DNA of 64,000 nucleotides from Bacteroidales bacterium (lineage in GTDB: Bacteria > Bacteroidota > Bacteroidia > Bacteroidales > VadinHA17): assembly GCA_050013475.1 (NCBI GenBank), contig JBEKFE010000006.1, forward strand, positions 30,892 to 94,891. Reading direction: 5' to 3'. Of the stretch, positions 24,486 through 58,698 are shown one piece after another (within the stretch, counting starts at the first letter, position 1; each line of letters starts with the position of its first letter). Position numbers and translations under genes: made by a program. The notes below the pieces were generated by a model that was given only the letters and a program-made list of their open reading frames with translations, ran no database searches and was not told the DNA's origin.

Positions 24486-24513
24486 CTGTTATTTAAATAA
24501 CAAGGCAAATATA
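24486..24513 (-). promoter_or_regulatory. sqr operon -7 promoter element with adjacent Rex-type palindrome
   Basis: Minus strand TATATTTG-cc-TTGTTATTTAAATAACAG; the 16-bp core TGTTATTTAAATAACA is a perfect palindrome. Confidence 0.6.
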
Positions 24514-24766
24514 GAGATATTTATATATCAATATGTATAAAAGAATATTTGAAAAGATGATATTTAGCACTTTGAGGTTAATGCGTTGAAATACAGAAGT
24601 AACTACCAGTTATTTTTTCAGGATATCACCCGAAGTTCGGGTTTTAATATCTCATTGCCACCTTGCTCGTTACATATTTATGTACTGGTGATATATCCTT
24701 TGAAGGGAATTAATTAATATCTATATTTCGCAATTAATTTTTATGCAAATCCCAAAATACAATTTT

Positions 24767-25147
24767 ATGAAAAATGTACTTATTCTGATCATTCTCACTC
24801 TTTCATGTTTTAGTCTGTCAGCTCAGACATCAAAAGTTAAGCATAACCCTGAAGGCAAATGGGATTTCGAGGCCCCGACTGCACCAGGCGGATACACTTC
24901 CGGTGTGGTTGAAGTAGCTTCGGCTGAAAATAAATATTCAGCTACCATGTCATTCACCGGGAACGATTATAAGTTCCCTATTGACATGGTCAAATTTGAA
25001 AATGACAGCCTTAAGATTAACCTGAATATCGAGGGAACAGATGTAAATATCAAAATTAAATTTGAGGACTCGGATAAAATGTCAGGCGTAGCTGTTACTA
25101 ACGACGGGGAGATCCCACTGGTACTTACACGCGAAAAGGCTAAATAG
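24767..25147 (+). CDS. Small exported hypothetical protein
   Basis: Signal peptide MKNVLILIILTLSCFSLSA; beta-rich body (GKWDFEAPTAP). Confidence 0.7.
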   Translation: MKNVLILIILTLSCFSLSAQTSKVKHNPEGKWDFEAPTAPGGYTSGVVEVASAENKYSATMSFTGNDYKFPIDMVKFENDSLKINLNIEGTDVNIKIKFEDSDKMSGVAVTNDGEIPLVLTREKAK

Positions 25148-25164
25148 ATCGGCGTCATCTGCAG

Positions 25165-27138
25165 ATGAAAAAAATTATTGCCCTGATCTTTTGTGCTGTG
25201 CTGATAATTAATAAAGGCAATGCACAGATAGTTAACGGTACTCCTCTGAGCCAGAGGATTACAGGTTATAAAATGGATGTTGAACTCGATCCGGTATCAA
25301 AAATAGTTTCCGGAAGCATAGACGCCTACTGGGTGAATATTTCCACAGATAAGGTACCTGACATTCAGCTTCATATGTACCTCAATGCATTCAGGAGCAA
25401 TAGATCGACATTTTATAAGGAATCAGGCGGATCACCAGGTTCATCCAAAGATGATGCAGGCTGGGTTGAGATCAAATCGATGACCGACAGGAAAGGGAAT
25501 GATCTTACTAAAAATATGGCATTTATTAGTCCGGATGATGGCAATAAGGATGATATGACTGTCCTCAGGGTAGTCATGCCTGAACCCGTGGCACCAAAAG
25601 ATACTGTCTTCCTGAAATTAAAGTTCAGATCCAAGCTGCCGTCAGTGATCAGAAGAACAGGTTTCTGCGATGATTTCTTCTTTGTTGCCCAGTGGTTCCC
25701 TAAATTCGGTGTATATGAACCTGCAGGCATGAGATATGCAGTTAAAGGCGGATGGAACTGCCACCAGTTTCATGCCAATTCAGAATTTTATGCTGATCAC
25801 AGTACATACGATGTGAATATAACCTTACCTGAGAAATATATAGTTGGCACAGGCGGAATGATGCTTGACGAAAAAAAGATCGATGGCGGAAGGAAAACCC
25901 TGAAGTACAGAGCTGAAGACATTGTCGATTTTGCGTGGACCGCATGGCCGGGCTATGCCCTGGCAACCGATCAATGGAAGAATGTTAAGATAACATTCCT
26001 TTACCCCCCGGAAAGAAAAGACCAGGTTTCACGTCAGCTTACCGCAGTTAAGAATGCCCTCGAATACTTTTCTGAAAATGTTGGCCCTTACCCATGGCCC
26101 TATCTTACATTTGTCGATCCGCCAGCCAAAGGCAGCGGTGCCAGTGGTATGGAATATACGACCATTTTTACCACGGAGTCGACAACCGGACTTCCCGGGT
26201 ATATTCATGTTCCGGAGATGGTAACCATCCATGAGTTTGGGCATGCTTACTTCATGGGGATACTCGCGAGCAATGAATTTGAAGAACCATGGCTCGATGA
26301 GGGTGTCAATTCTTTTCTTGAAGAGAGAATTGTGGACCATTACTATGGACAGGGAGGAATGATAGACCATCCGCTTCTGAAAGTCGGGGATGAGTCACTT
26401 GAAAGAGCAGGCTACGTGGCATCAGGAAATAACAGGGTTGTCAGTAACGCCGAATACTCCTGGAATTATTCTCATTCCACATATGGCATGATGTCGTATA
26501 TGAAAACAGCCACATGGCTTTATACGGTAATGGGGATCATCGGCGAAAAAGCCACAAATGAGGTTTTCAGGGAATACTACAGGGAATGGGCATTCAAACA
26601 TCCTTCAGGAAAAAATTTCATCGCAGTATTCAGTAAGGTTGTGCCTGAGATATATGGAGACAAGTTTGGACCCGATATGAACTGGTATTTTGACCAGGTT
26701 ACTTATGGAACAGGCATCTGCGATTACAAGGTGGCAGGTTTCTATAATACCAGGAATACCGACTTTGAGGGAGTTATCATTGAAGGCGACTCAGTGAGGC
26801 TCAGGAAAAATCTGTTCAGGAATGATACAATATTTACTTCAAGGGTTGAACTGGAAAGGCTTGGTGAAATAACCCTGCCGGTTGAGGTACTTGTTCATTT
26901 TGATAATGGTGACCATCTGCTTGAAAACTGGGATGGTAAAAGCAGCTTTAAGGATTATACATATTCCGGAAAGAGAAAAATAGACTGGGTCAAGATCGAC
27001 CCTGACTACAAGATCAAAATGGATGTGAATTATGTCAATAATTCCATGACTCTTAAACCTGACAGGAAGCCTGTCAGACGGATAACAGATAAGCTGATCG
27101 GATTCATGCAGTTCTTTATAAGTTTTATTTCACTGTAA
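25165..27138 (+). CDS. M1-family zinc aminopeptidase
   Basis: SGMEY exopeptidase motif, HEFGH-X18-E (EPWLDEG), signal peptide. Confidence 0.92.
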   Translation: MKKIIALIFCAVLIINKGNAQIVNGTPLSQRITGYKMDVELDPVSKIVSGSIDAYWVNISTDKVPDIQLHMYLNAFRSNRSTFYKESGGSPGSSKDDAGWVEIKSMTDRKGNDLTKNMAFISPDDGNKDDMTVLRVVMPEPVAPKDTVFLKLKFRSKLPSVIRRTGFCDDFFFVAQWFPKFGVYEPAGMRYAVKGGWNCHQFHANSEFYADHSTYDVNITLPEKYIVGTGGMMLDEKKIDGGRKTLKYRAEDIVDFAWTAWPGYALATDQWKNVKITFLYPPERKDQVSRQLTAVKNALEYFSENVGPYPWPYLTFVDPPAKGSGASGMEYTTIFTTESTTGLPGYIHVPEMVTIHEFGHAYFMGILASNEFEEPWLDEGVNSFLEERIVDHYYGQGGMIDHPLLKVGDESLERAGYVASGNNRVVSNAEYSWNYSHSTYGMMSYMKTATWLYTVMGIIGEKATNEVFREYYREWAFKHPSGKNFIAVFSKVVPEIYGDKFGPDMNWYFDQVTYGTGICDYKVAGFYNTRNTDFEGVIIEGDSVRLRKNLFRNDTIFTSRVELERLGEITLPVEVLVHFDNGDHLLENWDGKSSFKDYTYSGKRKIDWVKIDPDYKIKMDVNYVNNSMTLKPDRKPVRRITDKLIGFMQFFISFISL

Positions 27139-27148
27139 TAATTACAAG

Positions 27149-27997
27149 ATGAATATTTTAAGCCATCTCAGTTCAGGCGCATCAAAGTCATTTCGATCTT
27201 GGAAATGGATACTTGTAATCTGGTTTGCAGTTTTGGTTCTGGTCTCAATCCTTGGACTAACGCTGAGGGGAGAGCTGAACGCGATTTTCGGCAAAAGCAT
27301 GATCACCGAAAAGCTTGCCGACGGGACAATTGTTGATGTTATTGCAAACGCCGGAACAGGTATGAGGATACTTATTTCATCTTTTACAACAGGGTTTTTT
27401 CTGATCACCTTCCTGGGAATCCTTGTTATTGTTTTCTTTAATGGCGGTTTGTTTACTGTATTAAGGACCAGTGAAGCTAAAACTGGTTCAACAGAATTCT
27501 TTGGAGGAGCCGCCTCCAACTTCTGGCCTTTCCTGGTGATCTGGCTGCTCATTGCATTGATGATAGCGTTTGCAGCATTTCTTCTTGTTGGTCTGCCCGT
27601 TGTGATAAGGGCCGGATCGAACTCAGCAGGATCACCCGTTATTCTGAAATTAACTTCACTGGTATTACTGCTTATTATGCCTGTTTTTCTGCTGGTGGCA
27701 GATTATGCCAGAGCCTGGCAGGTATCAAATGAAAGAAAGAATGCGTTCAAAGCCATCGGAAAGGGATTTGCAACGACATTCCGTCATTTCTTCTTATCAT
27801 GGTCTGCAATGTTCCTTATGATCGTCATCCAGGTTATTTACCTGTTTCTGGTCTTCAGGTTTACCGGCAGCCTTAAACCGGTGTCAGCAGGTGGTATCTT
27901 TCTACTCTTTATCCTTATTCAGGTATTGTTCATCATAAAGCTTTTTCTCAGGACCTGGAGATATGGAATCGTAACTTCTTTGTACGAAAAGCCGTAA
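27149..27997 (+). CDS. Multi-pass membrane hypothetical protein, probably co-transcribed with the M1 peptidase
   Basis: About six hydrophobic segments; 10 bp gap from the peptidase gene. Confidence 0.75.
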   Translation: MNILSHLSSGASKSFRSWKWILVIWFAVLVLVSILGLTLRGELNAIFGKSMITEKLADGTIVDVIANAGTGMRILISSFTTGFFLITFLGILVIVFFNGGLFTVLRTSEAKTGSTEFFGGAASNFWPFLVIWLLIALMIAFAAFLLVGLPVVIRAGSNSAGSPVILKLTSLVLLLIMPVFLLVADYARAWQVSNERKNAFKAIGKGFATTFRHFFLSWSAMFLMIVIQVIYLFLVFRFTGSLKPVSAGGIFLLFILIQVLFIIKLFLRTWRYGIVTSLYEKP

Positions 27998-28056
27998 GCC
28001 CTGAGTACTGCGTCAATAAGTATAAATACCCCTCATAAATAGGCTTTAACTCTACT

Positions 28057-28102
28057 TTACCCTGATCAGGATTAGGGTAATTTTGTGTTAATAAGTTCAC
28101 AT
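28057..28102 (+). promoter_or_regulatory. Promoter of the hdr-like operon: 24-bp palindrome, -7 element and Rex-type operator
   Basis: TTACCCTGAT-CAGG-ATTAGGGTAA (28057-28080); TAATTTTG (28078-28085); GTGTTAA-TAAG-TTCACAT (28085-28102). Confidence 0.6.
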
Positions 28103-28125
28103 TTATCTGAATTCAGAGGGGGGGT

Positions 28126-28839
28126 ATGGAAAGTCTTTATAATCAGCTTTTAAAGGATATAAGGTTTGTCGAGGGACTCAATGCCTGCATGAACTGTGGC
28201 GTTTGTACAGCGATCTGTCCTGCTGCCGAATTTTATAATTATGATCCAAGGAAAATTGTCGATGAGGTACAGGAGCGGAATGAAGAGACCATAGAGGAAC
28301 TTCTTAAATCAGATACCATCTGGTACTGCGGCGAATGCATGTCGTGCAAGACCAGGTGCCCGCGTGGGAATGCTCCGGGACTTATCATAATGGCACTGCG
28401 GGCACTTTCGCAGGAACTTGGATATTTTGTAGAATCGGAAAAGGGGAGGCAGCAGCTTGCAATAAAAAGAACCGTGGGAGAGTGGATAATTAACCATGGA
28501 TACTGTCTTTATCTTGAGGGGGTTGGAACATCATTGCATCCCGAACAGGGGCCGGTTTGGGATTGGATACAGGAGAACTGGGTTGAACTTTTTAAACGAC
28601 TGGGTGCAAATTATAAAGGCGATGGGCCCGGGATATTGAGGAAAATCCCCGAAGATGCAATGGAAGAGATAAGGGAGATATTCAGGGTTACAGGCGGAAT
28701 GAAAAGGTTCGAGAAGATTGAAGAATTCTCAAGAATAAAAGCAGCGGAGATGTCTTTAAAACTGGATGATGGGATTGACAATGATTATTTCCGATATATT
28801 TATAAAACAGATAATCAGTCCCATACAAGGGACAAATAA
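28126..28839 (+). CDS. hdrC: HdrC-like 2x[4Fe-4S] protein with C-terminal extension (sHdrC1-like)
   Basis: CMNCGVCTAICP and WYCGECMSCKTRCP; extension containing HPEQGPVW. Confidence 0.88.
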   Translation: MESLYNQLLKDIRFVEGLNACMNCGVCTAICPAAEFYNYDPRKIVDEVQERNEETIEELLKSDTIWYCGECMSCKTRCPRGNAPGLIIMALRALSQELGYFVESEKGRQQLAIKRTVGEWIINHGYCLYLEGVGTSLHPEQGPVWDWIQENWVELFKRLGANYKGDGPGILRKIPEDAMEEIREIFRVTGGMKRFEKIEEFSRIKAAEMSLKLDDGIDNDYFRYIYKTDNQSHTRDK

Positions 28840-28848
28840 TATTTCGTA

Positions 28849-29910
28849 ATGAAGCTTGAAGGAAAAAAGGAAATCTGGAAGGATTACCAGAAGGAGATAG
28901 CAAATGATAAATATTTTTATGTCAGAAGCTGCGTGAGGCAGAATTTCTTCCCAGGCTCTGAAACTGCATTTCTCAGGATCATGACTGAGGTCTTAAAGAA
29001 GGATATCTATGAACATCCATGCCATACTACCTGTACCGGTATCGGGTACCATGGAGATATTGTTCCCGTTGAAACAACTATGACTGTTGTAGCAAGGCAA
29101 TTTGCCCTTATGAATGAATCGGGTTATGAAAACCTTCTGCCTTCATGCATCACATCATTCGGTTTATATACGGAAATACTAGATACGTGGCATCATTTCC
29201 CTGAAGTTGAGGAGAAGGTAAGGGAAAACCTGAGAAAAGCAACGGGAAGGGAATTTAAGATCCCTAAAAACCTTGCTCATGCAAGTGATGTCATATATAA
29301 GTTCAGGAAAGAGATTGCTGCAAAAGCAAAATATAAGCTGATAAACAAGAACACTGGTGAGCCCCTTAAAGTGGTTGACCACATAGGCTGTCATTATGCC
29401 AAGATGTTCCCATCAAAGGGCGTTGGAGGTGCAGAATATCCCTATGTGCTTGCTGGGATGGTAGAGGAATGGGGAGGAGAGGTTATCGACTATCCCGAAA
29501 GAAGACACTGCTGCGGATTTGGATTCAGGCAGTACCTCGTTCAGGCCAACAGGGGCTTCTCTGTTGCATGCTCCAAAGCAAAGTTCGAGTCGATGAAACC
29601 TTACAAGCCCGATATGATCATTACAAACTGCCCCGGTTGTCCAATGTTTCTCGACAGATGGCAGTATGTGATAAAGGAAATGGAGGGTGTTGCCTACGGT
29701 AAGAATAACGAAGGGATACCGGTCTTCACATACGAGGAGGTTGCAGGGCTTGTACTCGGATACGACCCCTGGGATCTTGGCTTGCAGATGCATCAGACAG
29801 ACTGTGAACCTGTGCTGGAAAAAATGGGCATCGAATATTCACCTGAGGACAAGTTTAAATTAAAAAAGAGTCAGTTCTCTTCCAATCCTCATATTGTTGT
29901 AAATGGCTAA
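28849..29910 (+). CDS. hdrB: HdrB-like CCG-domain protein (sHdrB1-like)
   Basis: Degenerate first CCG (RSC..TTCTG..SCITSFG), intact second CCG (HIGCHY..CCGFGFR..NCPGC). Confidence 0.88.
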   Translation: MKLEGKKEIWKDYQKEIANDKYFYVRSCVRQNFFPGSETAFLRIMTEVLKKDIYEHPCHTTCTGIGYHGDIVPVETTMTVVARQFALMNESGYENLLPSCITSFGLYTEILDTWHHFPEVEEKVRENLRKATGREFKIPKNLAHASDVIYKFRKEIAAKAKYKLINKNTGEPLKVVDHIGCHYAKMFPSKGVGGAEYPYVLAGMVEEWGGEVIDYPERRHCCGFGFRQYLVQANRGFSVACSKAKFESMKPYKPDMIITNCPGCPMFLDRWQYVIKEMEGVAYGKNNEGIPVFTYEEVAGLVLGYDPWDLGLQMHQTDCEPVLEKMGIEYSPEDKFKLKKSQFSSNPHIVVNG

Positions 29911-30952
29911 AGAGATGGATAAGCATGTAGTGGTCATAGGAGGGGGGGTTGCAGGACTTGAGGCAGCCGGTCAGCTGGCAAATGCCGGGATAGAGGTCAG
30001 CCTCATTGAGAAGGAATCTTTAACAGGAGGTCACCTGAATGACTGGTACAGGTTATTTCCCGACAGGAGAGACAGCTCTGAAGTGAAAGCTTATTTTGAT
30101 GAACTCATTTCTCGTGGCGGCATATCGGTTCAGACAAATACCACGATTGAGGATTTTCATCATCATAAAAACCATTTTGACATCACAACAAGTGATGGTA
30201 AAAGCCTGAAAGCTGATGCTGTAATAGTTTCAACAGGGTTCGACCTTTTTAAAAGCTCTAAGAAAGAAGAATATGGCTACGGGATTTATGATAATGTAAT
30301 AACATCCGCTGATCTTGAGACTCTTTTTCGTAAAAATGCGATCAGAACACATAACGGTGCAGAACCGAAGAGGATCGGTATCGTCCATTGCGTCGGTTCA
30401 AGGGATGAAAAGATCGGGAACCTTTATTGTTCAAAGCTATGCTGCGTAACTGCAGTCAAGCAGGCAATCGAGATAAGGGAGCATCTTCCGGAATGCCAGG
30501 TATTCTGTTTTTATATGGACATGAGGATGGGCGGGGCTTATTATGAAGAATTATACAGAGAGGCTCAGGAAAAATGGGGGGTTAATTTTGTAAGAGGCAA
30601 AGTCTCTGAAGCAGGCGAGAATATTGATGGAAAGATAGTTGTAAAGGTTGAGGACACGCTTGCTGGCCGACCTCTCAAAATGGAGGTAGACATACTTGTC
30701 CTGATGGCAGGAATGGAGATCTCTGAAGGAGGTAAATCAATTGCAGAAAAAACCGGGCTTCTTAGAGGCGAGAACAGGTTCTTTTCACCGGCAGATCATC
30801 ATTACGGGAATAACAGGAGCAATATTGAGGGTATTTTTTATGCAGGTACCTGCACAGCCCCGATGAATATTACCGAGACAATTTCCCACGCGCGTGCTGC
30901 GGTAACGGAAGTCGTAAATTATCTTGAAAGGGGCAGCAGGAAAAATGGATAA
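29903..30952 (+). CDS. hdrA: Short HdrA-like flavoprotein (FAD/TrxR domain + one [4Fe-4S])
   Basis: GGGVAG, EYGYG..NVITS, HCVGSRD..YCSKLCC, FYMDMR; no N-terminal or ferredoxin domains. Confidence 0.9.
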   Translation: MAKEMDKHVVVIGGGVAGLEAAGQLANAGIEVSLIEKESLTGGHLNDWYRLFPDRRDSSEVKAYFDELISRGGISVQTNTTIEDFHHHKNHFDITTSDGKSLKADAVIVSTGFDLFKSSKKEEYGYGIYDNVITSADLETLFRKNAIRTHNGAEPKRIGIVHCVGSRDEKIGNLYCSKLCCVTAVKQAIEIREHLPECQVFCFYMDMRMGGAYYEELYREAQEKWGVNFVRGKVSEAGENIDGKIVVKVEDTLAGRPLKMEVDILVLMAGMEISEGGKSIAEKTGLLRGENRFFSPADHHYGNNRSNIEGIFYAGTCTAPMNITETISHARAAVTEVVNYLERGSRKNG

Positions 30953-31289
30953 GTTTGGGTATACCATATCAAAACCAAGGATCATAGACTATGATCTGAA
31001 TGACCGAAGTATTGCAGGCTATATACTGGAACGGGAGAATAGTTTCAGAATATGCATAGAATGCGGAGGTTGCTCAGCAACCTGTACAACAGGTAAGTTT
31101 ACATCATTCAGCCTGAGGGAGCTTCACATTCTTATGAAAAGAGGTGAAAATGAAAAGCCGCGTGAAAAAATCAGGGAGTGTATGCTATGCGGCAAATGCA
31201 CTCTGGTTTGTCCACGGGGCGTGAATACACGAAATGTTATTTTCCTTGCCAGGGAGGCATTCAGAAAACTTGACAACCATGCGCTTTGA
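30945..31289 (+). CDS. Small HdrC-like 2x[4Fe-4S] protein
   Basis: CIECGGCSATC and CMLCGKCTLVCP; ATG overlaps the hdrA stop. Confidence 0.85.
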   Translation: MDKFGYTISKPRIIDYDLNDRSIAGYILERENSFRICIECGGCSATCTTGKFTSFSLRELHILMKRGENEKPREKIRECMLCGKCTLVCPRGVNTRNVIFLAREAFRKLDNHAL

Positions 31290-33890: not shown

Positions 33891-33901
33891 ACAGATCTGT
33901 T

Positions 33902-49776: not shown

Positions 49777-51522
49777 TCATACTGCGAATAATCCATCTAC
49801 CTGTGCAAGTATCTGCTGGTCGGTGAAATGCCGGCCCTTTATGGCTGATGACGGACATGCTGCCACGCATACACCACAGCTCTTGCAGAGAGCACTTATT
49901 ATATGACTGTGTCTTTTTTCTTCGTCGAATTCAATTGCACTATAGGGGCAAAGCTTGTTACAGAACCGGCATCCGGAACATTGTTCCTCATTTACTTCTG
50001 AATAAACTGCATCGACCTCGATCTTCCCTTTTGCGATTCTTGCGAGTATACGAGCAGCGGCTGCCCTTGCCTGAGCAACAGAATCAGGTATATCCTTTGG
50101 AGCAACACATGTCCCGGCAATAAATATTCCGTCAGTTGTAGTCGCAACAGGTTCAAGCTTCGGATGACTTTCGATGAACCATCCGTCTTTGTCCTGGCTG
50201 ATATTTACAAGTCGGGCAATTTCATTTGAGTCTTCCCGGGCTTCCATTCCTACCATAAGGATCACCATATCTGCCGGGATTTCAATATGTTCACCTGAAA
50301 GCTTTTCATTGACTTCTATAAGCATCTCACAGTCATCTTTCGGACCTGCTTTATGGATCACCGGTCTGTCACCTTTTTCGTACATCAGGAATAGTGTTTT
50401 AGCTTCCGATGATTTGCGATAGAAATCTTCATGCCCTTTCCCGAAAGCATGCATATCTATATAGATATCTGAAATATAGCAATCCGGGTTTGCAGACTTG
50501 ATCTCAGAGGCATATTTTAAAGCGGTCATGCAGCAGACCCGCGAGCAATAGGTGTGAAATTCCTTTGACCGGCTTCCCACGCAGTGGATAATAGCCACAT
50601 ATTTGGGCACTTTTCCTTCCTTTGTTTCAATGCTTCCGGCACGTATCATCTTTTCCAGATCGAAAGAAGTAATGACATTTGGTAGTTTTCCGTATCCATA
50701 GTGGACTATCCTGGATGCATCAAATTCCTTATATCCCGTACACACTACAACATTTCCGATCTTCACATTGACCTTCCTCCCCGGATAATTGAATTTATAG
50801 TCATAGGACTGAATTGTTGCCTTAAAATTGCCTATAAAGCCCGTGACCTCTGTCACTTTTGATTCAAGATAAACAATCACTTTTCTGTTATCCTTGATAC
50901 GCGTTATCTTTTCAGTGATCAGATCCCGGGCGGAATAGAGATAAGGTGCCGTAAGATCAACACGTGCAAGGTTCCCGCCAAGATGGTTATCTTTTTCAAC
51001 CAGATAAACAGTATAGCCTGAATCAGCAAGTTCAAGAGCTGCTGTCATACCGGTAATGCCCCCTCCGATAACAAGTACATTAGGGCACATATCAACCGAC
51101 ATGGTCTCGAGTGACTCATGGAGCTCAACACGGCAAACGGCTGCGCAGACAAGAGCTTTGGCTTTTTCAGTTGCTTCAACCGGATCAGTATGTACCCAGC
51201 TGCATTGTTCGCGTATATTGGCCATTTCGAAAAGATACTGATTCAGGCCAGCTGATCTCAGTGCACTACGAAAAGTCCGCTCATGCATATTTGGGCTGCA
51301 GGCAGCGACAACCACGCGATCAAGCTTATGCTCCTTTATATCCTGGGTGATCATCTCCTGTCCGGGATTGGAGCACATGTATTTATAGCTTTTTGCAAGA
51401 ACAACGTTTGGCAGATTGGAGGCGAATCCGGCAACTGCTTCCACATCGACTGCTTTTGCTATATTAGTTCCGCAACAGCAGATATACACTCCTATTCTGG
51501 GTGATTTTTCTTTGTCAGCCAT
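49777..51522 (-). CDS. hdrA: HdrA paralog with N-terminal Fe-S domain and C-terminal ferredoxin, no inserted ferredoxin (HdrA'')
   Basis: YICCCGTNI..YMCS..AACSP..REQCSWVH; GGGITG; HCVGSR..YCSRVCC; CSGCRFCNKLCP and CKSCGVCVAACP. Confidence 0.92.
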   Translation of the reverse strand: MADKEKSPRIGVYICCCGTNIAKAVDVEAVAGFASNLPNVVLAKSYKYMCSNPGQEMITQDIKEHKLDRVVVAACSPNMHERTFRSALRSAGLNQYLFEMANIREQCSWVHTDPVEATEKAKALVCAAVCRVELHESLETMSVDMCPNVLVIGGGITGMTAALELADSGYTVYLVEKDNHLGGNLARVDLTAPYLYSARDLITEKITRIKDNRKVIVYLESKVTEVTGFIGNFKATIQSYDYKFNYPGRKVNVKIGNVVVCTGYKEFDASRIVHYGYGKLPNVITSFDLEKMIRAGSIETKEGKVPKYVAIIHCVGSRSKEFHTYCSRVCCMTALKYASEIKSANPDCYISDIYIDMHAFGKGHEDFYRKSSEAKTLFLMYEKGDRPVIHKAGPKDDCEMLIEVNEKLSGEHIEIPADMVILMVGMEAREDSNEIARLVNISQDKDGWFIESHPKLEPVATTTDGIFIAGTCVAPKDIPDSVAQARAAAARILARIAKGKIEVDAVYSEVNEEQCSGCRFCNKLCPYSAIEFDEEKRHSHIISALCKSCGVCVAACPSSAIKGRHFTDQQILAQVDGLFAV

Positions 51523-51526
51523 TTCA

Positions 51527-52678
51527 CTATTTCATTTTATATAAGTTTTCCGTTTGTCCCTTTGACATCACGGATTTTTTTATTTCCGCAAAATAGATGG
51601 CGAAAGGCCTGTAGGCAAGGTGTGACCATTTGGAGAATGGTACCTCCACGCAGAGCATCGGAACGAGTACAGCCATATGAATTATGTACATATAATATGT
51701 AGCAACCGGCATGCCTTCGATCCTGAATATATGCAAAAGAATCCCCGAAACGGTTGTCATAAATAAAAGGACGATAAAGATCCAGTCGCTTAAATGTGAA
51801 AATTTGAATATCTGTCCAATTTTCTTAATCCGGCCCCAGCTGAAAAAAACCAGGCCAACGAGTAAACCGAAAGTAGAATAATATCCCAGAAGTCTTTGCG
51901 GTTCATACCAGGAATAGATTTTTTCAGTCTGGAACCATTTCAGATTCCCCACTATAAGTGCGAACATCAAAACATATCCCGACATTAAGATCCAGTGAAA
52001 AAACCAGTAGCTTCTGTCTTTGCATTTACTGAACTGCTTCTGTGTGGCGAAATGAACGATAAGTTGGTACAATTTAGTAACATAAAGACGGAAAGGTATC
52101 TTTAAAGACTTATCCTTCAGGAGTGTCAGATACCACATATGGATAATATTTGCAATAAGGAAGCTGGCAATGGAGATCAGCATGATATGTGCCCCGATAT
52201 TCACTGTCTCGACAGGGAACATCTCGTTTATCTTCACTCCTCCGTCGGGTGTCAGGGAGGTCACAATTCCGTGAGGATTGAAAACAGAGAACAGAAGGGC
52301 AATCAGGACCCCTATAACGAATACTGCAGCAAATTCCCACCAGTGGGAAGTATAAAACTTCCTCGACAATCCTGTCAGGTCATATACTGATGTCAGGTAT
52401 CTCCTTAATATCATCATGGTATCTCCCGGATTAGCCTCCCTTGGGCATAAATCCGAGCAGTCGCCGCAATAATAGCACAACCATGGTTCAAGCGTGGTTT
52501 CCACCTTCTTTTCAAGTCCCATTTGCAGCAGCCGGATGGGTTTACGGGGGAATCTGTAAAACTCGTCGGCATGCGGACAAACGGCAGAACAGTCACCGCA
52601 CTGGTAACATAACTGTATGTTTTCCTTGCCAAAACGATCCAGTGCATTTATGAATCCCGGGTTGACTCTGATTGCCAT
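51527..52678 (-). CDS. QmoC-like protein: HdrC-type 2x[4Fe-4S] domain fused to a heme-b-type transmembrane domain
   Basis: CYQCGDCSAVCP, WLCYYCGDCSDLCP, LRRYL, then TM helices with FFHWILMSGYVLM and IIHMAVL..FSKWSHLAYRP; likely start MAIRVNP. Confidence 0.85.
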   Translation of the reverse strand: MAIRVNPGFINALDRFGKENIQLCYQCGDCSAVCPHADEFYRFPRKPIRLLQMGLEKKVETTLEPWLCYYCGDCSDLCPREANPGDTMMILRRYLTSVYDLTGLSRKFYTSHWWEFAAVFVIGVLIALLFSVFNPHGIVTSLTPDGGVKINEMFPVETVNIGAHIMLISIASFLIANIIHMWYLTLLKDKSLKIPFRLYVTKLYQLIVHFATQKQFSKCKDRSYWFFHWILMSGYVLMFALIVGNLKWFQTEKIYSWYEPQRLLGYYSTFGLLVGLVFFSWGRIKKIGQIFKFSHLSDWIFIVLLFMTTVSGILLHIFRIEGMPVATYYMYIIHMAVLVPMLCVEVPFSKWSHLAYRPFAIYFAEIKKSVMSKGQTENLYKMK

Positions 52679-52688
52679 GGTAAGATTT

Positions 52689-54491
52689 TTATACTGTTTG
52701 AATATTCTTAGCCTTTGCTTCGATCTCACTGAGCGGGATGCTGCTCATATGTCCTATACCTCTCTTTGTTGTGAGGCTTCTGAGCACACCGGCTGCCACC
52801 GCAGATGCCTGGGCCACCGTATCGGGAATATCCTTTGGACCCTGGCACATTCCGGCCACATATATACCCCCTTTTTCAGTATCAGTCGGGCTGCCGTTGT
52901 AATTCAGTTCTGAAAACCATCCGTCAGTATCCTTGCTGATATCCAGCATTTTGACTAATTCATTTGTGCCGGAGGAAGGAATAAGACCAACTGCAAGGAC
53001 AACCATATCAACATTGAATTCAGCTAATCTGTCATTAATGATATCCTCACCCCTGACGACCATTTGACCGTTATTCATGGTAACTTTAGCCGAATGTCCG
53101 CGAATTATTAAAGTCCCTTCCTCCTTGATACGGTCAGCAAATTCCTCATAACCTTTTCCGAAGGCACGCATATCGATGTAAAACTCATAAACTGTGACAT
53201 TTGGGATCTTCTCTTTTATCAGATGTGCAAATTTCAGGGAATACATGCAGCATACCCTTGAGCAATACGAGTTGTATTTTTTATTTCTGGATCCTACGCA
53301 GTGGATAAGGGCAACACTTTTTGGGGGTACACCATCTGGCAAAAAGACCCATTCATCCTTTTCTGTTTTTTTATTAAAACGTTTGGTTTTAGTGACGATC
53401 TTTCCGCCTGTGGTCCCTGATGCATTGGTGAGGCGCTCAAATTCAAGTGAAGTCAGTACATTTGGATACAGGCCATATCCATACTGTTCTATTTTACTGA
53501 CATCCATAAGCTCATATCCTATGGCCAGGATGATGTTTCCCACCTCTATATCGAGAAAATGGTCGGTTTCGTTAAGGTTAATGCATTCCTTGGGACATTT
53601 TTTTACACAGACGCCGCATTTTTTTCCACCAGAAAGGATATAGGTGCATTTTGAAGCATCAACGAGGTAGGCATTCGGAACAGCCTGTGGAAACGGGATA
53701 TAGATCGCTTTTCTCAAAGAAATTCCGGCATCGAATTCACTTTCCACCTTAACCGGGCAAACTTCCACACATTGATTACATGCAACACACGATCTGACAT
53801 CTACAAACCTTGCGCTTTGTTTTATCTTCACATGGTAAGCACCAGGTTTCCCGGTAACGGCCACAACCTTTGATTTGGTCAACAGCTGGATCATCTCATG
53901 CTGTCCAACCGTAACCATTTTAGGAGTCAGGATACAGGCAGCGCAATCCAGTGTCGGGAACGTTTTGTCAAACATGGCCATATGTCCTCCGATCGTTCCT
54001 GTCTGTTCAACCAGATAAACCGGTTTACCTGCGTTTGCTATCTCGAGGGCAGATTGTATTCCGGCTATGCCGCCTCCTATGATAAGAGTCGAGTGATTGA
54101 CCGGATTTCCAACAGGTATAGCAGCTAGCGGAAAAGGAACAGCCATGGTTGCACAGGCTACTATAGCTTTTGCTCGATCCATCGCATTTTCTCCTCTTGC
54201 ACCGTGCTCCATGAAAGAAGCAAGACGTATTTCATCAGTATTGCCTCCCGCCAATGCCATCGCTTTGGTAAAGGCCGGTTTATAATAACCGGGCATATCT
54301 CCTGCGATAACAATCCTTCCCAGGTTATTTGTCCTGATGAGCTCATTAAGGATTTTTACATCAAGACGAGGCTTTACCCCCAGCATCTGGACAATATCAA
54401 CATTCGGAAGATTTGCAGCATATTTTGCAATGGAATCAATATTCAGATCCTTGCTCTGGTCTACCTGACAGAAAAAGACTCCTACTCGCAT
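52689..54491 (-). CDS. hdrA: HdrA paralog with inserted ferredoxin domain, degenerate N-terminal domain and no C-terminal ferredoxin (HdrA')
   Basis: GGGIAG, KTFPTLDCAAC, CVACNQCVEVCP..CGVCVKKCP, HCVGSR..YCSRVCC, GPKDIPDTVAQ. Confidence 0.92.
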   Translation of the reverse strand: MRVGVFFCQVDQSKDLNIDSIAKYAANLPNVDIVQMLGVKPRLDVKILNELIRTNNLGRIVIAGDMPGYYKPAFTKAMALAGGNTDEIRLASFMEHGARGENAMDRAKAIVACATMAVPFPLAAIPVGNPVNHSTLIIGGGIAGIQSALEIANAGKPVYLVEQTGTIGGHMAMFDKTFPTLDCAACILTPKMVTVGQHEMIQLLTKSKVVAVTGKPGAYHVKIKQSARFVDVRSCVACNQCVEVCPVKVESEFDAGISLRKAIYIPFPQAVPNAYLVDASKCTYILSGGKKCGVCVKKCPKECINLNETDHFLDIEVGNIILAIGYELMDVSKIEQYGYGLYPNVLTSLEFERLTNASGTTGGKIVTKTKRFNKKTEKDEWVFLPDGVPPKSVALIHCVGSRNKKYNSYCSRVCCMYSLKFAHLIKEKIPNVTVYEFYIDMRAFGKGYEEFADRIKEEGTLIIRGHSAKVTMNNGQMVVRGEDIINDRLAEFNVDMVVLAVGLIPSSGTNELVKMLDISKDTDGWFSELNYNGSPTDTEKGGIYVAGMCQGPKDIPDTVAQASAVAAGVLRSLTTKRGIGHMSSIPLSEIEAKAKNIQTV

Positions 54492-54542
54492 AATTATCTA
54501 TGATTGATTATCTTATAAATCATCTTTTACGGTCGAAGAATA

Positions 54543-56006
54543 TTAATCTCTTATCACACGCTGCGTCAATTCTCCTCCGGCATCACGAATTTCAAGAATC
54601 ATTGGCATTTCTCCGGGAAGGCTATGAGTAGCACATGAAAAACACGGGTCATATGCCCTGAAAGCCATTTCGATCATATTCAGAGTGCCGGCGGTCACTT
54701 CAACTCCTTTTTTGATCAGACCAGCCGCAGCTTTTTTTATCGACATGCTGATTGCCGCATGATTATTTGTAGTTCCGACGATAAGATTTACTTTGGTAAC
54801 AATTCCTTTGTTGTCGGTGAAATAATGGTGTGTCAGAGTTCCTCTCTGGGCTTCAACGATTCCTACACCTTCACCTGGAATTGACCCTAACTGTGCCCGT
54901 AATTCTTTACCGGTAATCTCATCATCCCGGGCGAGTTCCAGACATCTTTCAGCAGAATATAAAAGCTCCACAAGCCTTGCCCAGTGCATAGCAAGTGTTG
55001 CATGGACTGGTTTGCCTCCAAGTGTGCTGTACATGCGTTCATATTCTTTTTGTGCCAGAGGAGTGGCCATTCCATCAGCTGCATTTAACCTCGATAATGG
55101 TGTGGCCTGGTAAACCCCTGAATTCTGCCCCTCGGTAAATCCTTTCCATCCAATCTTTTTAAGATATGGGAACTTAAGATAACTCCAGGGTTCAACATGT
55201 TCTGCTACATAATTGAGATACTCAGGTGGAGAATATTTGTACAACTCTTTTCCTTCTGTATCCACCACCCTTACTTTTCCATCATAAAAGTTTACCTTAT
55301 TGTTGGAATCAACGAGACCCATTGAATGAAGTTTGAGGGAATATGGACCGTTAAGTATAATATCGACGTACTGTTTATTATCAAGCACGAAATTTTGAAA
55401 AACATTGAGAGAAAACTTTGCGAATTCCACGAACCCCTTTGCTTTTTCGACAACATCATCACGCTCTTTTACGGAAAGTCCTCTTCGTACTCCACCCGGG
55501 ATATTCATTACAACAAAAGTCTGATGTCCACCCAGGAGTGCCTGTATTTCCTGCGCCAGGCGACGTTGTTTAATTACTTCCGTTCCGATTTCCTTTCCAA
55601 CCTTTTCAATTACTCCAAGGATATTTCTTTTAGCAGCTGGAGCATCCGGGCCTAAAACAAAATCCGGTGCAGCCAGTGCATAAAAATTGGCTATATGACT
55701 ATGGATAAAATGTGCCATGTAAAAAAGCTCCCTGAGTTTTTTAGCTGTTGGCGGAGGTTCGACACCAAATACAGCATCAACAGCTTTTCCTGAAGCCATA
55801 TGATGACAACCAGGGCAGACTCCGCATATTTTTGCGACGATTGCTGGGAGTTCTTCAACAGGTCTTCCCTCGCAGAATTTTTCAAAACCTCTCAGTTCCG
55901 GAACCTGAAAATATACATTATCAACTTCTCCGTCATCATTAAGAAAAATTTCTATTTTACCATGACCTTCGAGTCGCGTAATAGGATCAATCGTGATTCT
56001 TTTCAT
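54543..56006 (-). CDS. mvhA: [NiFe]-hydrogenase large subunit, group 3c (MvhA)
   Basis: TRLEGHG, RGFEKF, L1 KICGVCPGCH, L2 AYDPCFSCATH with cleavable C-terminal tail. Confidence 0.95.
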   Translation of the reverse strand: MKRITIDPITRLEGHGKIEIFLNDDGEVDNVYFQVPELRGFEKFCEGRPVEELPAIVAKICGVCPGCHHMASGKAVDAVFGVEPPPTAKKLRELFYMAHFIHSHIANFYALAAPDFVLGPDAPAAKRNILGVIEKVGKEIGTEVIKQRRLAQEIQALLGGHQTFVVMNIPGGVRRGLSVKERDDVVEKAKGFVEFAKFSLNVFQNFVLDNKQYVDIILNGPYSLKLHSMGLVDSNNKVNFYDGKVRVVDTEGKELYKYSPPEYLNYVAEHVEPWSYLKFPYLKKIGWKGFTEGQNSGVYQATPLSRLNAADGMATPLAQKEYERMYSTLGGKPVHATLAMHWARLVELLYSAERCLELARDDEITGKELRAQLGSIPGEGVGIVEAQRGTLTHHYFTDNKGIVTKVNLIVGTTNNHAAISMSIKKAAAGLIKKGVEVTAGTLNMIEMAFRAYDPCFSCATHSLPGEMPMILEIRDAGGELTQRVIRD

Positions 56007-56977
56007 GATAATTTTCTCCTTATTAGTGAGACAGGCAGACTAAATCTGTAGAATAATCCGGCCGGGTCTACAATATCGTCAATTACCCTGTTAATTTCTT
56101 CCGGTTCCTTTTCATCTATTATACTTCCGATTGCTGACATCATTTTGGTTCCGGGATCAGTTACACCGGGTGTAGGTCCGTAGCAGCCACGGCATGGAGC
56201 ATTGCCTTTAATGCATCGATAACCGCATCCCTCCCTGGTCGCAGGTCCCATGCATATGACCCCCTGCTCCATAAAGCAGGTTTCGCCATCATCAGTTATT
56301 TCCCACGGGCGGTAAAACTTTTTTATCTGCTTGTTCTCTGTTTTCTTCCTGATACACTCATCGCATTGAGCCCTTATCCCGGCTCCGATAACGGAACCTT
56401 TTGGCGGAAGTTCATCTCCGCTGACTATTGCAGCAAATACCTCGAGGAACCTTTCTGTCTGAGGAGGACAACCGGGGATGAAATAATCTACCTCAACGGT
56501 TTGTGAGAGGGAACGGACATCATTATAAAAAACAGGTATCTCGAGTACGCCTTCCTTTACTTTATTTTCAGAAAGAGGTCTTGTTTTTTCAGGGTTGATC
56601 GTTGATTCACTTTCTTCATAAACTCTCCGGAATATATCCTCTTTGGTTGAAAAATTGGCCAGTCCCGGAATACCCCCAAGATGCGAGCAACTGCCATAAG
56701 CAACAAGAGTTTTGCTTTTCTTTCTTAAGAGTTTGGCCATATGCTCGTTCTCGCTGTTCCTTACAGCACCGTTAAATAGTGTGAGATCAATATAATTATC
56801 TGGCATTTCTTCGACATCTTTGTATTTGATATCCAGAGCAATAGGCCAGAATACAAAATCGGCAGCCTCTATAACATCAAAAAGCTTCTCGTGTACATCA
56901 AGAACTGATACACAACAACCGCCGCAGGCAGAAGCCCAATAAACGGCAAGTTTAAGTTTTGGCTTTGATCCTTCCAT
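56003..56977 (-). CDS. mvhG: [NiFe]-hydrogenase small subunit (MvhG)
   Basis: ACGGC, YGSC, PGCPP, CDEC, CFMEQGVICMGP..GC..C..NAPCRGCYG. Confidence 0.95.
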   Translation of the reverse strand: MEGSKPKLKLAVYWASACGGCCVSVLDVHEKLFDVIEAADFVFWPIALDIKYKDVEEMPDNYIDLTLFNGAVRNSENEHMAKLLRKKSKTLVAYGSCSHLGGIPGLANFSTKEDIFRRVYEESESTINPEKTRPLSENKVKEGVLEIPVFYNDVRSLSQTVEVDYFIPGCPPQTERFLEVFAAIVSGDELPPKGSVIGAGIRAQCDECIRKKTENKQIKKFYRPWEITDDGETCFMEQGVICMGPATREGCGYRCIKGNAPCRGCYGPTPGVTDPGTKMMSAIGSIIDEKEPEEINRVIDDIVDPAGLFYRFSLPVSLIRRKLS

Positions 56978-56994
56978 GGCACAAAAATTAATAT

Positions 56995-57420
56995 CTATGT
57001 TAAGACATTCAGCGTCTCTTTTATTTTGGATTGTCCCAATTCTGTTATAGTTTCTGTAAAACTATCGATCAACTCAGCGAATTGCTTACCCTCACTGGCG
57101 CTTATCCATTCAAGTTTAAGTCTTTCTGTCTCAATACCCATCTGGGTGATGTATTTCTGCAACAACTCGTACCTCCGGAGACACCTGTAATTGCCCTCCT
57201 GATAATGACAGTCACCCGGGTGACAGCCACAAAGCAGCACACCATCGGCACCATTGGTAAATGCCTTGAGTACAAATGTAGGTTCTATCCGGCCTGAGCA
57301 CATAACCTTGACAATCCTCACATTGGGTTTATACACCATCCGTGATGTACCTGCCAGATCTGCACCGGTGTACGAGCACCATTTGCAGAGAAATGCAATG
57401 ATCCGGGGTTTAAATTCCAT
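56995..57420 (-). CDS. mvhD: Hydrogenase [2Fe-2S] adaptor subunit (MvhD)
   Basis: FLCKWCSY, VMCSGR, GCHPGDCHY, WISASEG. Confidence 0.96.
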   Translation of the reverse strand: MEFKPRIIAFLCKWCSYTGADLAGTSRMVYKPNVRIVKVMCSGRIEPTFVLKAFTNGADGVLLCGCHPGDCHYQEGNYRCLRRYELLQKYITQMGIETERLKLEWISASEGKQFAELIDSFTETITELGQSKIKETLNVLT

Positions 57421-57526
57421 TTTACTGACTCATTTATTTAATGAAAAACATCAACAATAATGACTTTTGTCATAGATCAAAAATTCAATAAAAAGTTAGC
57501 AAACAATTTTTGAAAATATTATGATT

Positions 57527-57544
57527 AAGTGAAGTATTTCACAA
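57527..57544. promoter_or_regulatory. Rex operator upstream of mvhD
   Basis: AAGTGAA-GTAT-TTCACAA vs consensus TTGTGAA-N4-TTCACAA (12/14). Confidence 0.75.
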
Positions 57545-57837
57545 TAAGTAATCTGATAAATCTTTATGGGATGTTATATTTTCAGATAAATAATTGTTTT
57601 CGTATCTGTAATATATTTATTGTGCTGATTGAATTATAGAATAATAAAAAAATGCGTAAGAGATTATATATTAGTATATAAACAACATTAATAAGAAAAA
57701 AATGATCGGGATTTAATAGTCTCGAAAGAGAGTTTATTTTATATTTAAATCAATATGGTCACTAAAAATCATGGCTTTGAAAAAATATTTCAGAAAGAGA
57801 GAAAAAAACGATATAGAATAATGATAATCCTGAAATA

Positions 57838-57855
57838 AAATGAAACTATTCACAA
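57838..57855. promoter_or_regulatory. Rex-type operator
   Basis: AAATGAA-ACTA-TTCACAA (11/14). Confidence 0.6.
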
Positions 57856-57924
57856 TAAATTATAAAAATAAAATCAGGAATTTTCCATAATTATCTTTGC
57901 CTTCTTAACTTTTTAAAGCTGTTT

Positions 57925-58395
57925 TTATTGAACAATAATCCACCTGACTTTTTCCAGTACCTTTTCGAGTATTTCGGGATACTTTTTCTTTAATTCCAGA
58001 GTGAATTCTTCACTGAATTCCATATCTTCAATGATCTCAATGGCAATTATATGCAGATCTTCCGGCAGATCCAGATTCAGAGTACGACCCAGTTTAAGGG
58101 CTGTGAGGAATGATACATCGTGAAGATTAGACAGATGCAAAGTGTCCTGGAAATCAGAAGGGATAAAATAATATACATCACCTGGCTTGCCTTCGCGGGT
58201 GCGGATCGCATCTATGAAAATAACCCGCTTAAAATCCCTGATGTGATCAATTATCTCCAGACCACCGCAGCCAGCCTTTTCATAATCAAGATCCGGATCG
58301 CTGATCATTTTCCCGATGTCATCGACAAGCCGGAAACCAATACCATCATCTGTCAGGATATTATTCCCGATTCCCAGGATCAAAGTTTTTTTCAT
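57925..58395 (-). CDS. Hydrogenase maturation endopeptidase (HycI/HybD family)
   Basis: LGIGNNILTDDGIG, IFIDAI, NLHDV. Confidence 0.93.
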   Translation of the reverse strand: MKKTLILGIGNNILTDDGIGFRLVDDIGKMISDPDLDYEKAGCGGLEIIDHIRDFKRVIFIDAIRTREGKPGDVYYFIPSDFQDTLHLSNLHDVSFLTALKLGRTLNLDLPEDLHIIAIEIIEDMEFSEEFTLELKKKYPEILEKVLEKVRWIIVQ

Positions 58396-58497
58396 CCTCG
58401 TATTTCATTGAGAGAGCAGATGACACAGAGCAGGATGGAACCGTAAACTCTATAATGTTGTACTGCCCTTCTTTTCTGTAAATATAGTAAAGTGTTA

Positions 58498-58515
58498 ATG
58501 TGAGATTATTCACAT
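58498..58515. promoter_or_regulatory. Rex-type operator in the divergent protease/rex region
   Basis: ATGTGAG-ATTA-TTCACAT (11/14). Confidence 0.65.
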
Positions 58516-58680
58516 AAAAAATATATTATAAAGATATATTAATCAATCTAATATATCACAATTATTATTATTTATATTATGGATAACATTTTAAATATCT
58601 ATAAATCAGTTATAAAATAAAATATTTTGTATTTATAAAATTTGATTATCTTGCATATTAAAGTAAATTAAAAACATTTG

Positions 58681-58698
58681 ACGTGAAACAATTCACAA
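58681..58698. promoter_or_regulatory. Rex operator overlapping the rex start codon (autoregulation)
   Basis: ACGTGAA-ACAA-TTCACAA (12/14). Confidence 0.7.

Follow-up and report, generated by a model that had tools for sequence, protein, structure and literature searches.

Two classes of Rex-type boxes and two Rex paralogues in a Bacteroidales genome with sulfur-related and [NiFe] hydrogenase operons

Introduction

Well-described Rex regulons are known from Firmicutes, Actinobacteria and Thermotogae. Here we follow six Rex-type palindromes (boxes) in a stretch of 64,000 nucleotides (nt) from an uncultured Bacteroidales bacterium, called the window throughout (contig C6 of genome G000, positions 30892–94891). 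The boxes stand at three sets of genes: a sulfide:quinone reductase (SQR) gene with TusE/DsrC and DsrE2-like genes, a row of Hdr-like genes ending in a membrane-anchored subunit, and an Mvh-type [NiFe] hydrogenase operon that diverges from a rex gene. A first-pass annotation of the window had taken the six boxes for one motif and the three operons for one regulon under the adjacent Rex, possibly a circuit that leads electrons from H2 to sulfur.

Among the closest described systems are two Rex systems and one Hdr-like one. The Thermoanaerobacterium Rex motif is an 18-bp palindrome, TTGTTA-N6-TAACAA, and its predicted targets in T. saccharolyticum include ech-hyp (a [NiFe] hydrogenase with its maturation genes), hfs and hydG ([FeFe] hydrogenase genes) and the sulfur-reducing enzyme asrABC (PMC5886521). 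In the Rex–DNA complex of T. maritima, Arg48 and Lys49 make contact with G5 and G7, respectively, of the half-site (PMC8836258). The sHdr-LbpA sulfur-oxidising systems are described as being regulated by the ArsR-type repressors sHdrR and SoxR (PMC11094781, PMC10451225, 10.1101/2025.02.17.638619). Because hydrogenases, hyp genes and a sulfite reductase are already among predicted Rex targets (PMC5886521), Rex boxes beside a hydrogenase are unremarkable in themselves. Less ordinary would be a Rex regulon in Bacteroidales whose operator is fused to the phylum-specific -7 promoter element, for which we found no paper in the open-access text searched.

Results

Six boxes and a genome-wide palindrome family

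We call the two boxes at the SQR and Hdr-like operons (24486 and 28085) distal and the four around the hydrogenase (57527, 57838, 58498 and 58681) proximal, and refer to half-sites as T-class (TGTTA) or G-class (TGTGA). The letters and coordinates of all six 18-mers are as first annotated, and so is the contact of both distal boxes with a -7 element of the form TAnnTTTG. Box 28085 overlaps its element by 1 nt, its first base being the last G of TAATTTTG, and lies 24 nt 5′ of the ATG at 28126; box 24486–24503 is 3 nt from its element and 13 nt from the SQR start codon. The description of both as Rex-type boxes in the position of a repressor stands as a prediction, as each would overlap the start site expected just 3′ of the -7 element. 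Of the proximal boxes, all eight half-sites have G; box 57838 is the weakest of the six and has no clear counterpart in related loci.

Counted within the window, these boxes are not enriched: the 18-mer pattern with up to three mismatches matches 21 times where 16.2 ± 4.0 matches are expected, and as many as 21 turn up in 13 of 100 shuffles. The counts that follow are for the whole genome (3.46 Mb, 30 contigs, 43% G+C), in which 'intergenic' always refers to our own crude, greedy gene calling from open reading frames (ORFs) and covers 8.8% of positions at 36% G+C. The palindrome TGTKAA-N4-TTMACA has 4 exact intergenic copies, the Hdr-like box among them, and 2 coding ones; one-mismatch copies number 21 and 31, respectively. 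With 25 intergenic matches within one mismatch, it ranks second among 180 composition-matched permuted palindromes (mean 7.9). The top rank, with 55 such matches, belongs to GTTKAA-N4-TTMAAC, which may be a frame-shifted view of Rex-type boxes or a separate motif.

The variant half TGTTAT occurs in 7 of the 21 one-mismatch intergenic sites. The wider pattern TGTKAW-N4-WTMACA has 16 exact intergenic and 7 coding copies and includes both distal boxes as exact members; its W was picked after seeing the data, and without the two distal boxes the intergenic count is still 14 against about 0.8. The N4 spacing is sharply preferred. Among spacings from N0 to N12, the other twelve give 3, 0, 1, 0, 1, 1, 1, 0, 0, 1, 0 and 2 intergenic copies, and direct or everted arrangements of TGTKAW half-sites give at most 5. 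Only 9 of the 32 half-sites in the 16 sites have G.

A position weight matrix (PWM) built from the 14 family sites other than the distal boxes has the consensus TTGTTAATTAATTAACAA and, over 3.46 million positions, places the SQR box 3rd in the genome (23.1 bits) and the Hdr-like box 14th (19.1 bits). The same matrix gives the proximal boxes 4.1–11.7 bits and ranks of 79–1054. The first-pass annotation, which assumed one motif, had proposed the reverse test, a PWM from the four proximal boxes; scanned over 3,464,354 positions, 301,493 of them intergenic, this puts the distal boxes at background, at ranks 130 (28085) and 16,531 (24486), or 26th and 2,359th among intergenic positions. We rejected the proximal-site PWM for describing the regulon as a whole, since the four sites used to train it form a special class.

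The specific link that the annotation had drawn between the three operons of the window is not supported, since at least 14 other intergenic sites are of the distal type. Among the genes adjacent to the 16 sites are nuoA and genes for an Ldh-family protein, an OYE NADH:flavin oxidoreductase, an Mqo-like flavoprotein and a multihaem cytochrome c. Further neighbours are two Crp-family genes, genes for a cupin, an ABC ATPase and a YdeI-like protein, and a NuoF-HydA [FeFe] hydrogenase operon headed by two divergent NuoE-like genes. A strict TAnnTTTG within 3 nt of the box is present at only 3 of the 16 exact sites and at one one-mismatch site on contig C3; several other family boxes have a one-mismatch TAnnTTTG alongside, judged by eye.

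Conservation of the distal boxes within the genus

Conservation upstream of orthologues, which the annotation had put forward as a check, is found within the genus and is lacking between families. Among the 18 other genomes of the genus (G101–G118), 7 of 8 orthologous loci have an exact SQR box, at -26 to -31 and behind a TAnnTTTG-like element. The 18 loci compared for the Hdr-like box belong to the two closer paralogue groups, and it is found at -26 to -45, exact in 11 of them and with one mismatch in 2; each conserved box lies directly 3′ of TAnnTTTG, and the spacers vary. The third Hdr-like paralogue group of the genus has the box in 0 of 5 loci. In the 350 nt upstream of 26 Hdr-like orthologues from outside the genus, no box within one mismatch stands at a comparable position; one promoter has such a box at -317. 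These 26 are the usable loci of a set of 29; L016 and L032 were left out because the locus edge cuts their first gene, and L042 because it has no HdrC-like match. The Ldh-family gene is of no use as an order-wide marker of box conservation, since it is present in only 4 of 100 genomes from other families. In most congeners (loci L043–L059), a conserved block AATAGG(C/T)TTTAA(G/C) lies about 30 nt 5′ of the Hdr-like -7 element (window 28020–28050); it could be a -33 region or the site of another factor.

The palindrome itself is abundant in the congeners, with 10–258 exact copies of TGTKAW-N4-WTMACA per genome against 3–9 for the control, in this and all per-genome counts below the same pattern read backwards. 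The largest numbers are 258 (G112), 164 (G102) and 129 (G108). These are not copies of one repeated element, because their spacers differ; in two examples from G112 (L169 and L171), the box lies directly 3′ of TAnnTTTG and just 5′ of a start codon. Some congeners may have undergone a very large expansion of the putative operator.

Palindrome excess and Rex across the order

We extended the comparison to 100 other genomes, one per family of the order, scoring Rex as present at E<1e-15 to the Rex of the window. A Rex homologue is found in 57 of them. Only 7 of these are 44–52% identical to the window's Rex; the rest are of the type of a second paralogue on contig C18 of our genome, to which they are 54–58% identical. 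The 57 Rex-bearing genomes hold 787 palindromes against 437 control matches, with an excess of at least 8 in 23 of them, whereas the 43 genomes in which no Rex was found hold 312 against 456, with such an excess in none. The association of palindrome excess with Rex has a Mann–Whitney p of 7e-9, which is overstated because related genomes are not independent. G098, whose sole Rex match is of the window type (46% identity), has 8 palindromes against 13 control matches. A Crp homologue is found in 85 of 101 genomes; it reaches 40% identity in 12, of which 7 have a palindrome excess, and G063 has an excess of 15 and no Crp match at E<=1e-20. This comparison used one of the two Crp genes of the genome. 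From these patterns we conclude that the TGTKAW-N4-WTMACA family is a predicted Rex regulon.

Two Rex paralogues and two operator classes

The regulon need not belong to the Rex of the window (Rex2). The second paralogue (Rex1; contig C18, 51666–52295) is 33% identical to Rex2 over C18:51684–52274, scores 199.4 bits against a cut-off of 126 with NCBIfam NF003995 and was aligned end to end with 8 distinct Rex sequences of the PDB (best E-value 2.9e-32); Rex2 was in turn aligned with Rex1. Rex2 contains the Pfam domains Put_DNA-bind_N (residues 10–55) and CoA_binding (residues 83–180) and the sequence GMGNMG, which agrees with the Rex architecture of a winged-helix domain for DNA at the N-terminus and a Rossmann domain for NAD(H) at the C-terminus. 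Within the genus, Rex1 is found in 17 of 18 genomes and Rex2 in 8. Exact Hdr-like boxes are kept in six congeners in which only Rex1 was found (G114, G106, G108, G105, G111 and G102) and exact SQR boxes in four (G114, G105, G106 and G108), contrary to the earlier placement of all three operons under the window's Rex.

The boxes segregate into two classes. In the congeners, half-sites of the Hdr-like boxes are T in 21 cases and G in 1, and those of the SQR boxes T in 13 and G in 1. Around relatives of rex2 the picture is inverted: 37 of 39 named loci have boxes in the region from -400 to +25, at fixed places near -184 and on the GTG start codon, with 143 G and 7 T half-sites, the T coming from an occasional third box at about -115. 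This T-class box, between the two G-class boxes of rex2, is present in 3 of the 39 loci (L129, L146 and L148; exact in L148), which hints that rex2 may be under Rex1 control in some genomes. The mvhD box 57527 has G-class counterparts in 2 of 3 related loci with mvh, the two that share its layout, at -122 (L125) and -94 (L131, exact). In G108, which has a window-type mvhD (83% identity) and in which Rex2 was not found, two one-mismatch T-class boxes lie upstream instead, at -84 and -61.

Gene neighbourhoods also set the paralogues apart. hypF follows rex2 in 35 of the 39 loci, and mvh lies within 10 kb of rex2 in 3. A [NiFe] large-subunit gene is found in 4 of 5 Rex2-bearing congeners, each time within about 6 kb of rex2, and in 1 of 5 congeners without Rex2. 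rex1 belongs to an operon with response-regulator and histidine-kinase genes, with a one-mismatch T-class box in front, directly downstream of a HydABC-like operon whose promoter region has an exact and a one-mismatch T-class box. Between these two operons lies a gene for a 653-aa protein (C18:54062–56023, minus strand; L123:7062–9023) in which HisKA and HATPase_c domains are fused to a large-subunit domain of [FeFe] hydrogenase; it is a candidate for a histidine kinase that senses H2 or redox state.

The two proteins differ in the recognition helix, where Rex2 has QVRKD (Arg-Lys) and Rex1 has QVRRD (Arg-Arg). By our own alignment of the published T. maritima operator, G7, the base contacted by Lys49, falls on the position that separates G-class from T-class half-sites. 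Among Rex chains in the PDB, the second residue of the pair is Lys in T. maritima and Thermus, Gln in T. ethanolicus and Arg in B. subtilis and S. agalactiae.

Two further observations concern boxes near rex2. The GTG start of the gene (window 58672–58698) lies inside its own predicted operator, and the first residues, VKQFT, look operator-dictated; as the box directly follows the -7-like AACATTTG, the rex mRNA may have little or no leader. A hybrid box, TTGTTATTAA(T/A/G)TT(C/A)ACA(G/A), recurs about 6–8 kb downstream of rex2, past the hyp genes, in many of the loci L129–L158; in our genome, a box of the TTGTTATTAA type lies outside the window at C6:114680, 15 nt before an ABC-transporter ATPase gene.

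The three operons are not inherited as a set

Co-occurrence, another of the proposed checks, speaks against a three-operon unit: among the 18 congeners, the Hdr-like operon is found in 17, SQR in 8 and a window-type mvhD in 2 (Rex2 in 8). HdrB-like orthologues (57–85% identity) are present in 38 of the 100 other families of the order; for SQR, 12 genomes from other families gave no orthologue. In six congeners, SQR and the Hdr-like operon share a contig and lie about 4–18 kb apart.

The earlier argument that the Hdr-like operon supplies CCG modules missing from the hydrogenase operon is weak, because contig C3 holds a separate HdrC-HdrB(CCG)-HdrA-MvhD operon with its own boxes, and the layout of the mvh operon is Qmo-like; we know of no HdrB in QmoABC. 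On C3 (246636–254071, L124), a second nuoA-like gene faces the HdrC-HdrB(CCG)-HdrA-MvhD operon, which continues with genes for a Fer4_22 and an NAD-binding protein; between the two, in the intergenic DNA that they share, are three one-mismatch boxes, mixed in class.

Genes of the window

The gene calls of the annotation are borne out by profile searches and hydropathy, for SQR with TusE and a DsrE2-like protein, for the Hdr-like set with its membrane fusion and for MvhDGA with two HdrA-like proteins and a QmoC-like one (Table 1). The true start of the TusE/DsrC gene is probably later than that of the listed ORF, because the family match spans residues 46–141; the 3′ end of the SQR gene overlaps this longest ORF. 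The model that SQR passes is named 'type III SQR, selenoprotein subtype', and the ORF has no in-frame stop; the protein is presumably the Cys form. All Hdr matches of the Hdr-like operon fall under NCBIfam equivalog cut-offs. The hydrophobic segments of its 649-aa fusion protein lie in about the first 270 residues by hydropathy scan. No lipoate-binding protein gene (PF01597) lies near it, with none on contig C6 and GcvH-like matches only at C4:138562 and C12:88879 and, below threshold, at C1:263544; for lack of such a gene nearby we do not file the cluster as an sHdr-LbpA system. The hydrogenase operon (49777–58395, minus strand) runs in the order hycI, mvhD, mvhG, mvhA, HdrA-like, QmoC-like, HdrA-like. 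The genome has a gene of the type IX secretion system (T9SS), as fits Bacteroidota, and its relatives are uncultured Bacteroidales genomes assembled from metagenomes of fens, peat, permafrost and sediments.

Table 1. Genes, promoter elements and predicted operators in the window (positions count from its first letter)
Feature	Position	Strand	Basis or remark
DsrE2-like sulfur carrier gene	22379..22882	-	Pfam DrsE_2 88 bits; NCBIfam DsrE2 94 bits, below cut-off 210
TusE/DsrC family gene	22900..23325 (ORF as listed)	-	Pfam DsrC 86 bits; TIGR03342 71.1 bits, cut-off 53.5
Type III SQR	23241..24473	-	NCBIfam NF049943 607.7 bits, cut-off 525
Predicted T-class Rex-type operator, SQR promoter	24486..24503	.	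core TGTTATTTAAATAACA, a perfect 16-bp palindrome
-7 promoter element TATATTTG, SQR	24506..24513	-	3 nt from box core
-7 promoter element TAATTTTG, Hdr-like operon	28078..28085	+	directly abuts box core
Predicted Rex-type operator, Hdr-like operon	28085..28102	.	T/G hybrid TGTTAA-TAAG-TTCACA
HdrC-like 4Fe-4S protein	28126..28839	+	below equivalog cut-offs
HdrB-like CCG protein	28849..29910	+	family/profile match
Short HdrA-like flavoprotein, 349 aa	29903..30952	+	
Small 4Fe-4S protein, HdrC2-like	30924..31289	+	
Membrane domain + Fer4/CCG fusion (HdrD, DsrK or TfrB kind), 649 aa	31234..33183	+	NCBIfam TfrB, LdhH, DsrK and GlpC-like matches, residues 285-629
HdrA-like protein, 581 aa	49777..51522	-	profile match
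QmoC-like membrane Fe-S protein	51527..52729	-	NCBIfam qmoC positions 5-360 of 360, 194 bits, cut-off 300; hydrophobic segments
HdrA-like protein, 600 aa	52689..54491	-	profile match
[NiFe] hydrogenase large subunit (mvhA), Mvh/Vhu type	54543..56006	-	only one found in the genome
[NiFe] hydrogenase small subunit (mvhG)	56003..56977	-	
MvhD	56995..57420	-	Pfam FlpD 187 bits
G-class box, 123 nt upstream of mvhD	57527..57544	.	
Weak G-class box between hycI and mvhD	57838..57855	.	2 mismatches to the 16-mer
HycI-type hydrogenase maturation protease	57925..58395	-	
G-class box between divergent hycI and rex	58498..58515	.	
G-class box on the GTG start of rex	58681..58698	.	directly 3′ of the -7-like element
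Rex paralogue 2	58683..59321	+	NCBIfam Rex NF003996 203.2 bits, cut-off 138
hypF, hypD and hypE-like gene, downstream of rex	59378..63914	+	

Discussion

From the sites and their statistics, conservation and class segregation, together with the paralogy and the phyletic patterns, we infer which protein binds which class, repression, the response to NADH and any electron path. The account that we consider probable combines a global Rex1 regulon of T-class boxes with a local Rex2 circuit of G-class boxes tied to the [NiFe] hydrogenase. The T-class consensus TTGTTAATTAATTAACAA, in which some G half-sites are tolerated, would mark a genome-wide regulon of redox-balancing operons: ldh, nuoA, the NuoEF-HydA [FeFe] hydrogenase, the OYE NADH:flavin reductase, the Mqo-like flavoprotein, SQR-TusE-DsrE and the Hdr-like complex with its membrane subunit. 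Because a T-class box usually lies directly 3′ of a -7 element, a Rex dimer bound there would prevent initiation and would come off the box as NADH rises. Its regulator is most likely the housekeeping Rex1, encoded beside the HydABC-like operon in an operon with a T-class box of its own. The G-class boxes (TGTGAW-N4-WTCACA) are found only at the [NiFe] hydrogenase locus, where they stand upstream of mvhD, in the interval from hycI to rex and over the start codon of rex; they are most likely operators of Rex2, so that rex2-hypFDE would be autoregulated and hycI-mvh controlled.

That the distal boxes are chance palindromes in AT-rich promoter DNA would fit the window-level count, the background ranks under the proximal-site PWM and the 36% G+C of intergenic DNA. 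The idea is very improbable nonetheless: it is already contradicted by the spacing control (16 sites at N4 against 0–3 at other spacings) and by the conservation of both boxes in the genus, where position and half-sites are kept while spacers vary (SQR 7 of 8; Hdr-like 11 exact and 2 one-mismatch of 18), and the motif ranks second of 180 permuted palindromes. A single Rex regulon, in which Rex2 or both paralogues interchangeably act on all six boxes and Mvh, the Hdr-like complex and SQR form one H2-to-sulfur unit, has more to recommend it. All six boxes share the frame TGTnA-N6-TnACA, the Hdr-like box of the window is a T/G hybrid with one perfect TTCACA half, the family admits G half-sites (9 of 32), SQR and Hdr-like operons are neighbours in 6 congeners, and the T-class box between the G-class boxes of rex2 in 3 of 39 loci hints at cross-talk. 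Yet reciprocal PWMs score the other set poorly (130 and 16,531 one way, 79–1054 the other), distal boxes persist where Rex2 was not found, including the hybrid Hdr-like box itself in G114, and at least 14 other promoters have the distal type of box; of the 18 congeners, 17 have the Hdr-like operon and 8 have SQR but only 2 a window-type mvhD, and only 3 of the 39 loci have mvh within 10 kb of rex2. We regard this reading as unlikely, and the original proposal of one motif, one regulon and one H2-to-sulfur circuit as not supported; an electron path from H2 to sulfur is speculation.

Alternatively, the T-class boxes could be operators of another global factor, for instance of the CRP/FNR family, with only the G-class boxes being Rex sites. 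The classic CRP/FNR frame, TGTGA-N6-TCACA, is the same 16-bp frame as that of our family, which is a point in favour of this alternative. Several further findings weigh against a Rex1 regulon, some of them by favouring such a factor. Two Crp-family genes have a family site upstream, at 111 and 148 nt, which would fit autoregulation by a CRP/FNR-type factor too. One congener, G103, has 70 palindromes against 9 control matches although Rex was not found in it by protein and Pfam search, in an assembly that is 86% complete and in which the neighbour gene of rex1 was also not found. Counts of 129–258 palindromes, the highest in G112, exceed any Rex regulon known to us and may point to another global factor. 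Beyond the genus, the Hdr-like promoters lack the box at a comparable position. The Arg-for-Lys difference is suggestive and not diagnostic, because Arg-Arg also occurs in the Rex proteins of B. subtilis and S. agalactiae; and since the family tolerates G half-sites, Rex1 could bind G-class boxes, or Rex2 the hybrid Hdr-like box. The pairing of Rex1 with the T class and of Rex2 with the G class, although the most likely one, derives entirely from how boxes and paralogues are distributed, and related genomes are non-independent samples in all our conservation and phyletic counts. Against another factor, all 23 order-wide genomes with an excess of at least 8 have Rex and none of the 43 without Rex has such an excess, and the Crp homologue, one of two, predicts the excess no better (7 of 12 at 40% identity or more; no match in G063). 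The gene content fits Rex, rex1 lies beside box-bearing operons, and the consensus TTGTTAATTAATTAACAA matches the Thermoanaerobacterium Rex motif (PMC5886521). On balance, a factor other than Rex is quite unlikely to own the T-class boxes.

Under the favoured combination of a global Rex1 and a local Rex2, SQR, the Hdr-like complex and Mvh would have in common a type of signal, the NADH/NAD+ ratio, and not one operator or a dedicated circuit. An excess of NADH would derepress parallel outlets, namely H2 production, lactate, Nuo and the action of SQR and the Hdr-like complex on sulfur compounds via menaquinone, and [NiFe] hydrogenase maturation and Mvh would be under separate control by the second Rex. 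A bolder history built on the same sequences is possible and is offered tentatively. In it, Rex control has been divided in this wetland lineage: a duplicated Rex that retains the canonical Arg-Lys pair would have private TGTGA operators and control only [NiFe] maturation and H2 uptake, and the older Arg-Arg paralogue would read TGTTA set against the -7 element; the TGTTA operator would have spread to 100–250 promoters in some congeners, making NADH/NAD+ a near-global signal, with SQR and the menaquinone-linked Hdr-like complex as sinks for NADH overflow onto sulfur compounds.

The predicted NADH response of the type III SQR and of the membrane-linked Hdr-like complex, which is widely conserved, points to redox balancing and not to energy gain from sulfide. 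Two Rex paralogues in one genome, with cleanly segregated operator classes that differ at a Rex-contacted base, offer a small, testable case of regulon insulation. The result is also a warning not to derive a regulon from sites beside its regulator gene; here these are the atypical ones.

Set beside known systems, the hydrogenase operon resembles MvhADG with Qmo-like partners: MvhD and the small and large subunits are joined by two HdrA-like proteins and by a QmoC-like protein that matches the whole qmoC profile, at 194 bits below the cut-off of 300, in an operon without an HdrB/CCG subunit. Compared with the HdrC1-B1-A-(H)-C2-B2 set of the sHdr-LbpA systems, the Hdr-like operon has HdrC1-like, HdrB1-like, short HdrA-like and HdrC2-like genes in a row, with the DsrE and TusE/DsrC genes about 5 kb away; its last gene encodes a membrane-anchored HdrE/D- or DsrMK-like fusion, and its predicted control is a Rex box and not sHdrR. 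With reference to the T. maritima Rex–operator complex (7WB3; PMC8836258), Rex2 keeps the Arg-Lys pair of the recognition helix whereas Rex1 has Arg-Arg, and the base contacted by Lys49 is, by our own alignment, the one G/T that differs between the classes. Finally, the predicted Rex regulon of T. saccharolyticum (PMC5886521) has the same kind of operator, with repression there relieved by NADH. In the uncultured Bacteroidales host, by contrast, the box abuts a Bacteroidota-type -7 element, a type III SQR and a membrane-linked Hdr-like complex are among the putative targets, and a second paralogue has G-class boxes of its own.

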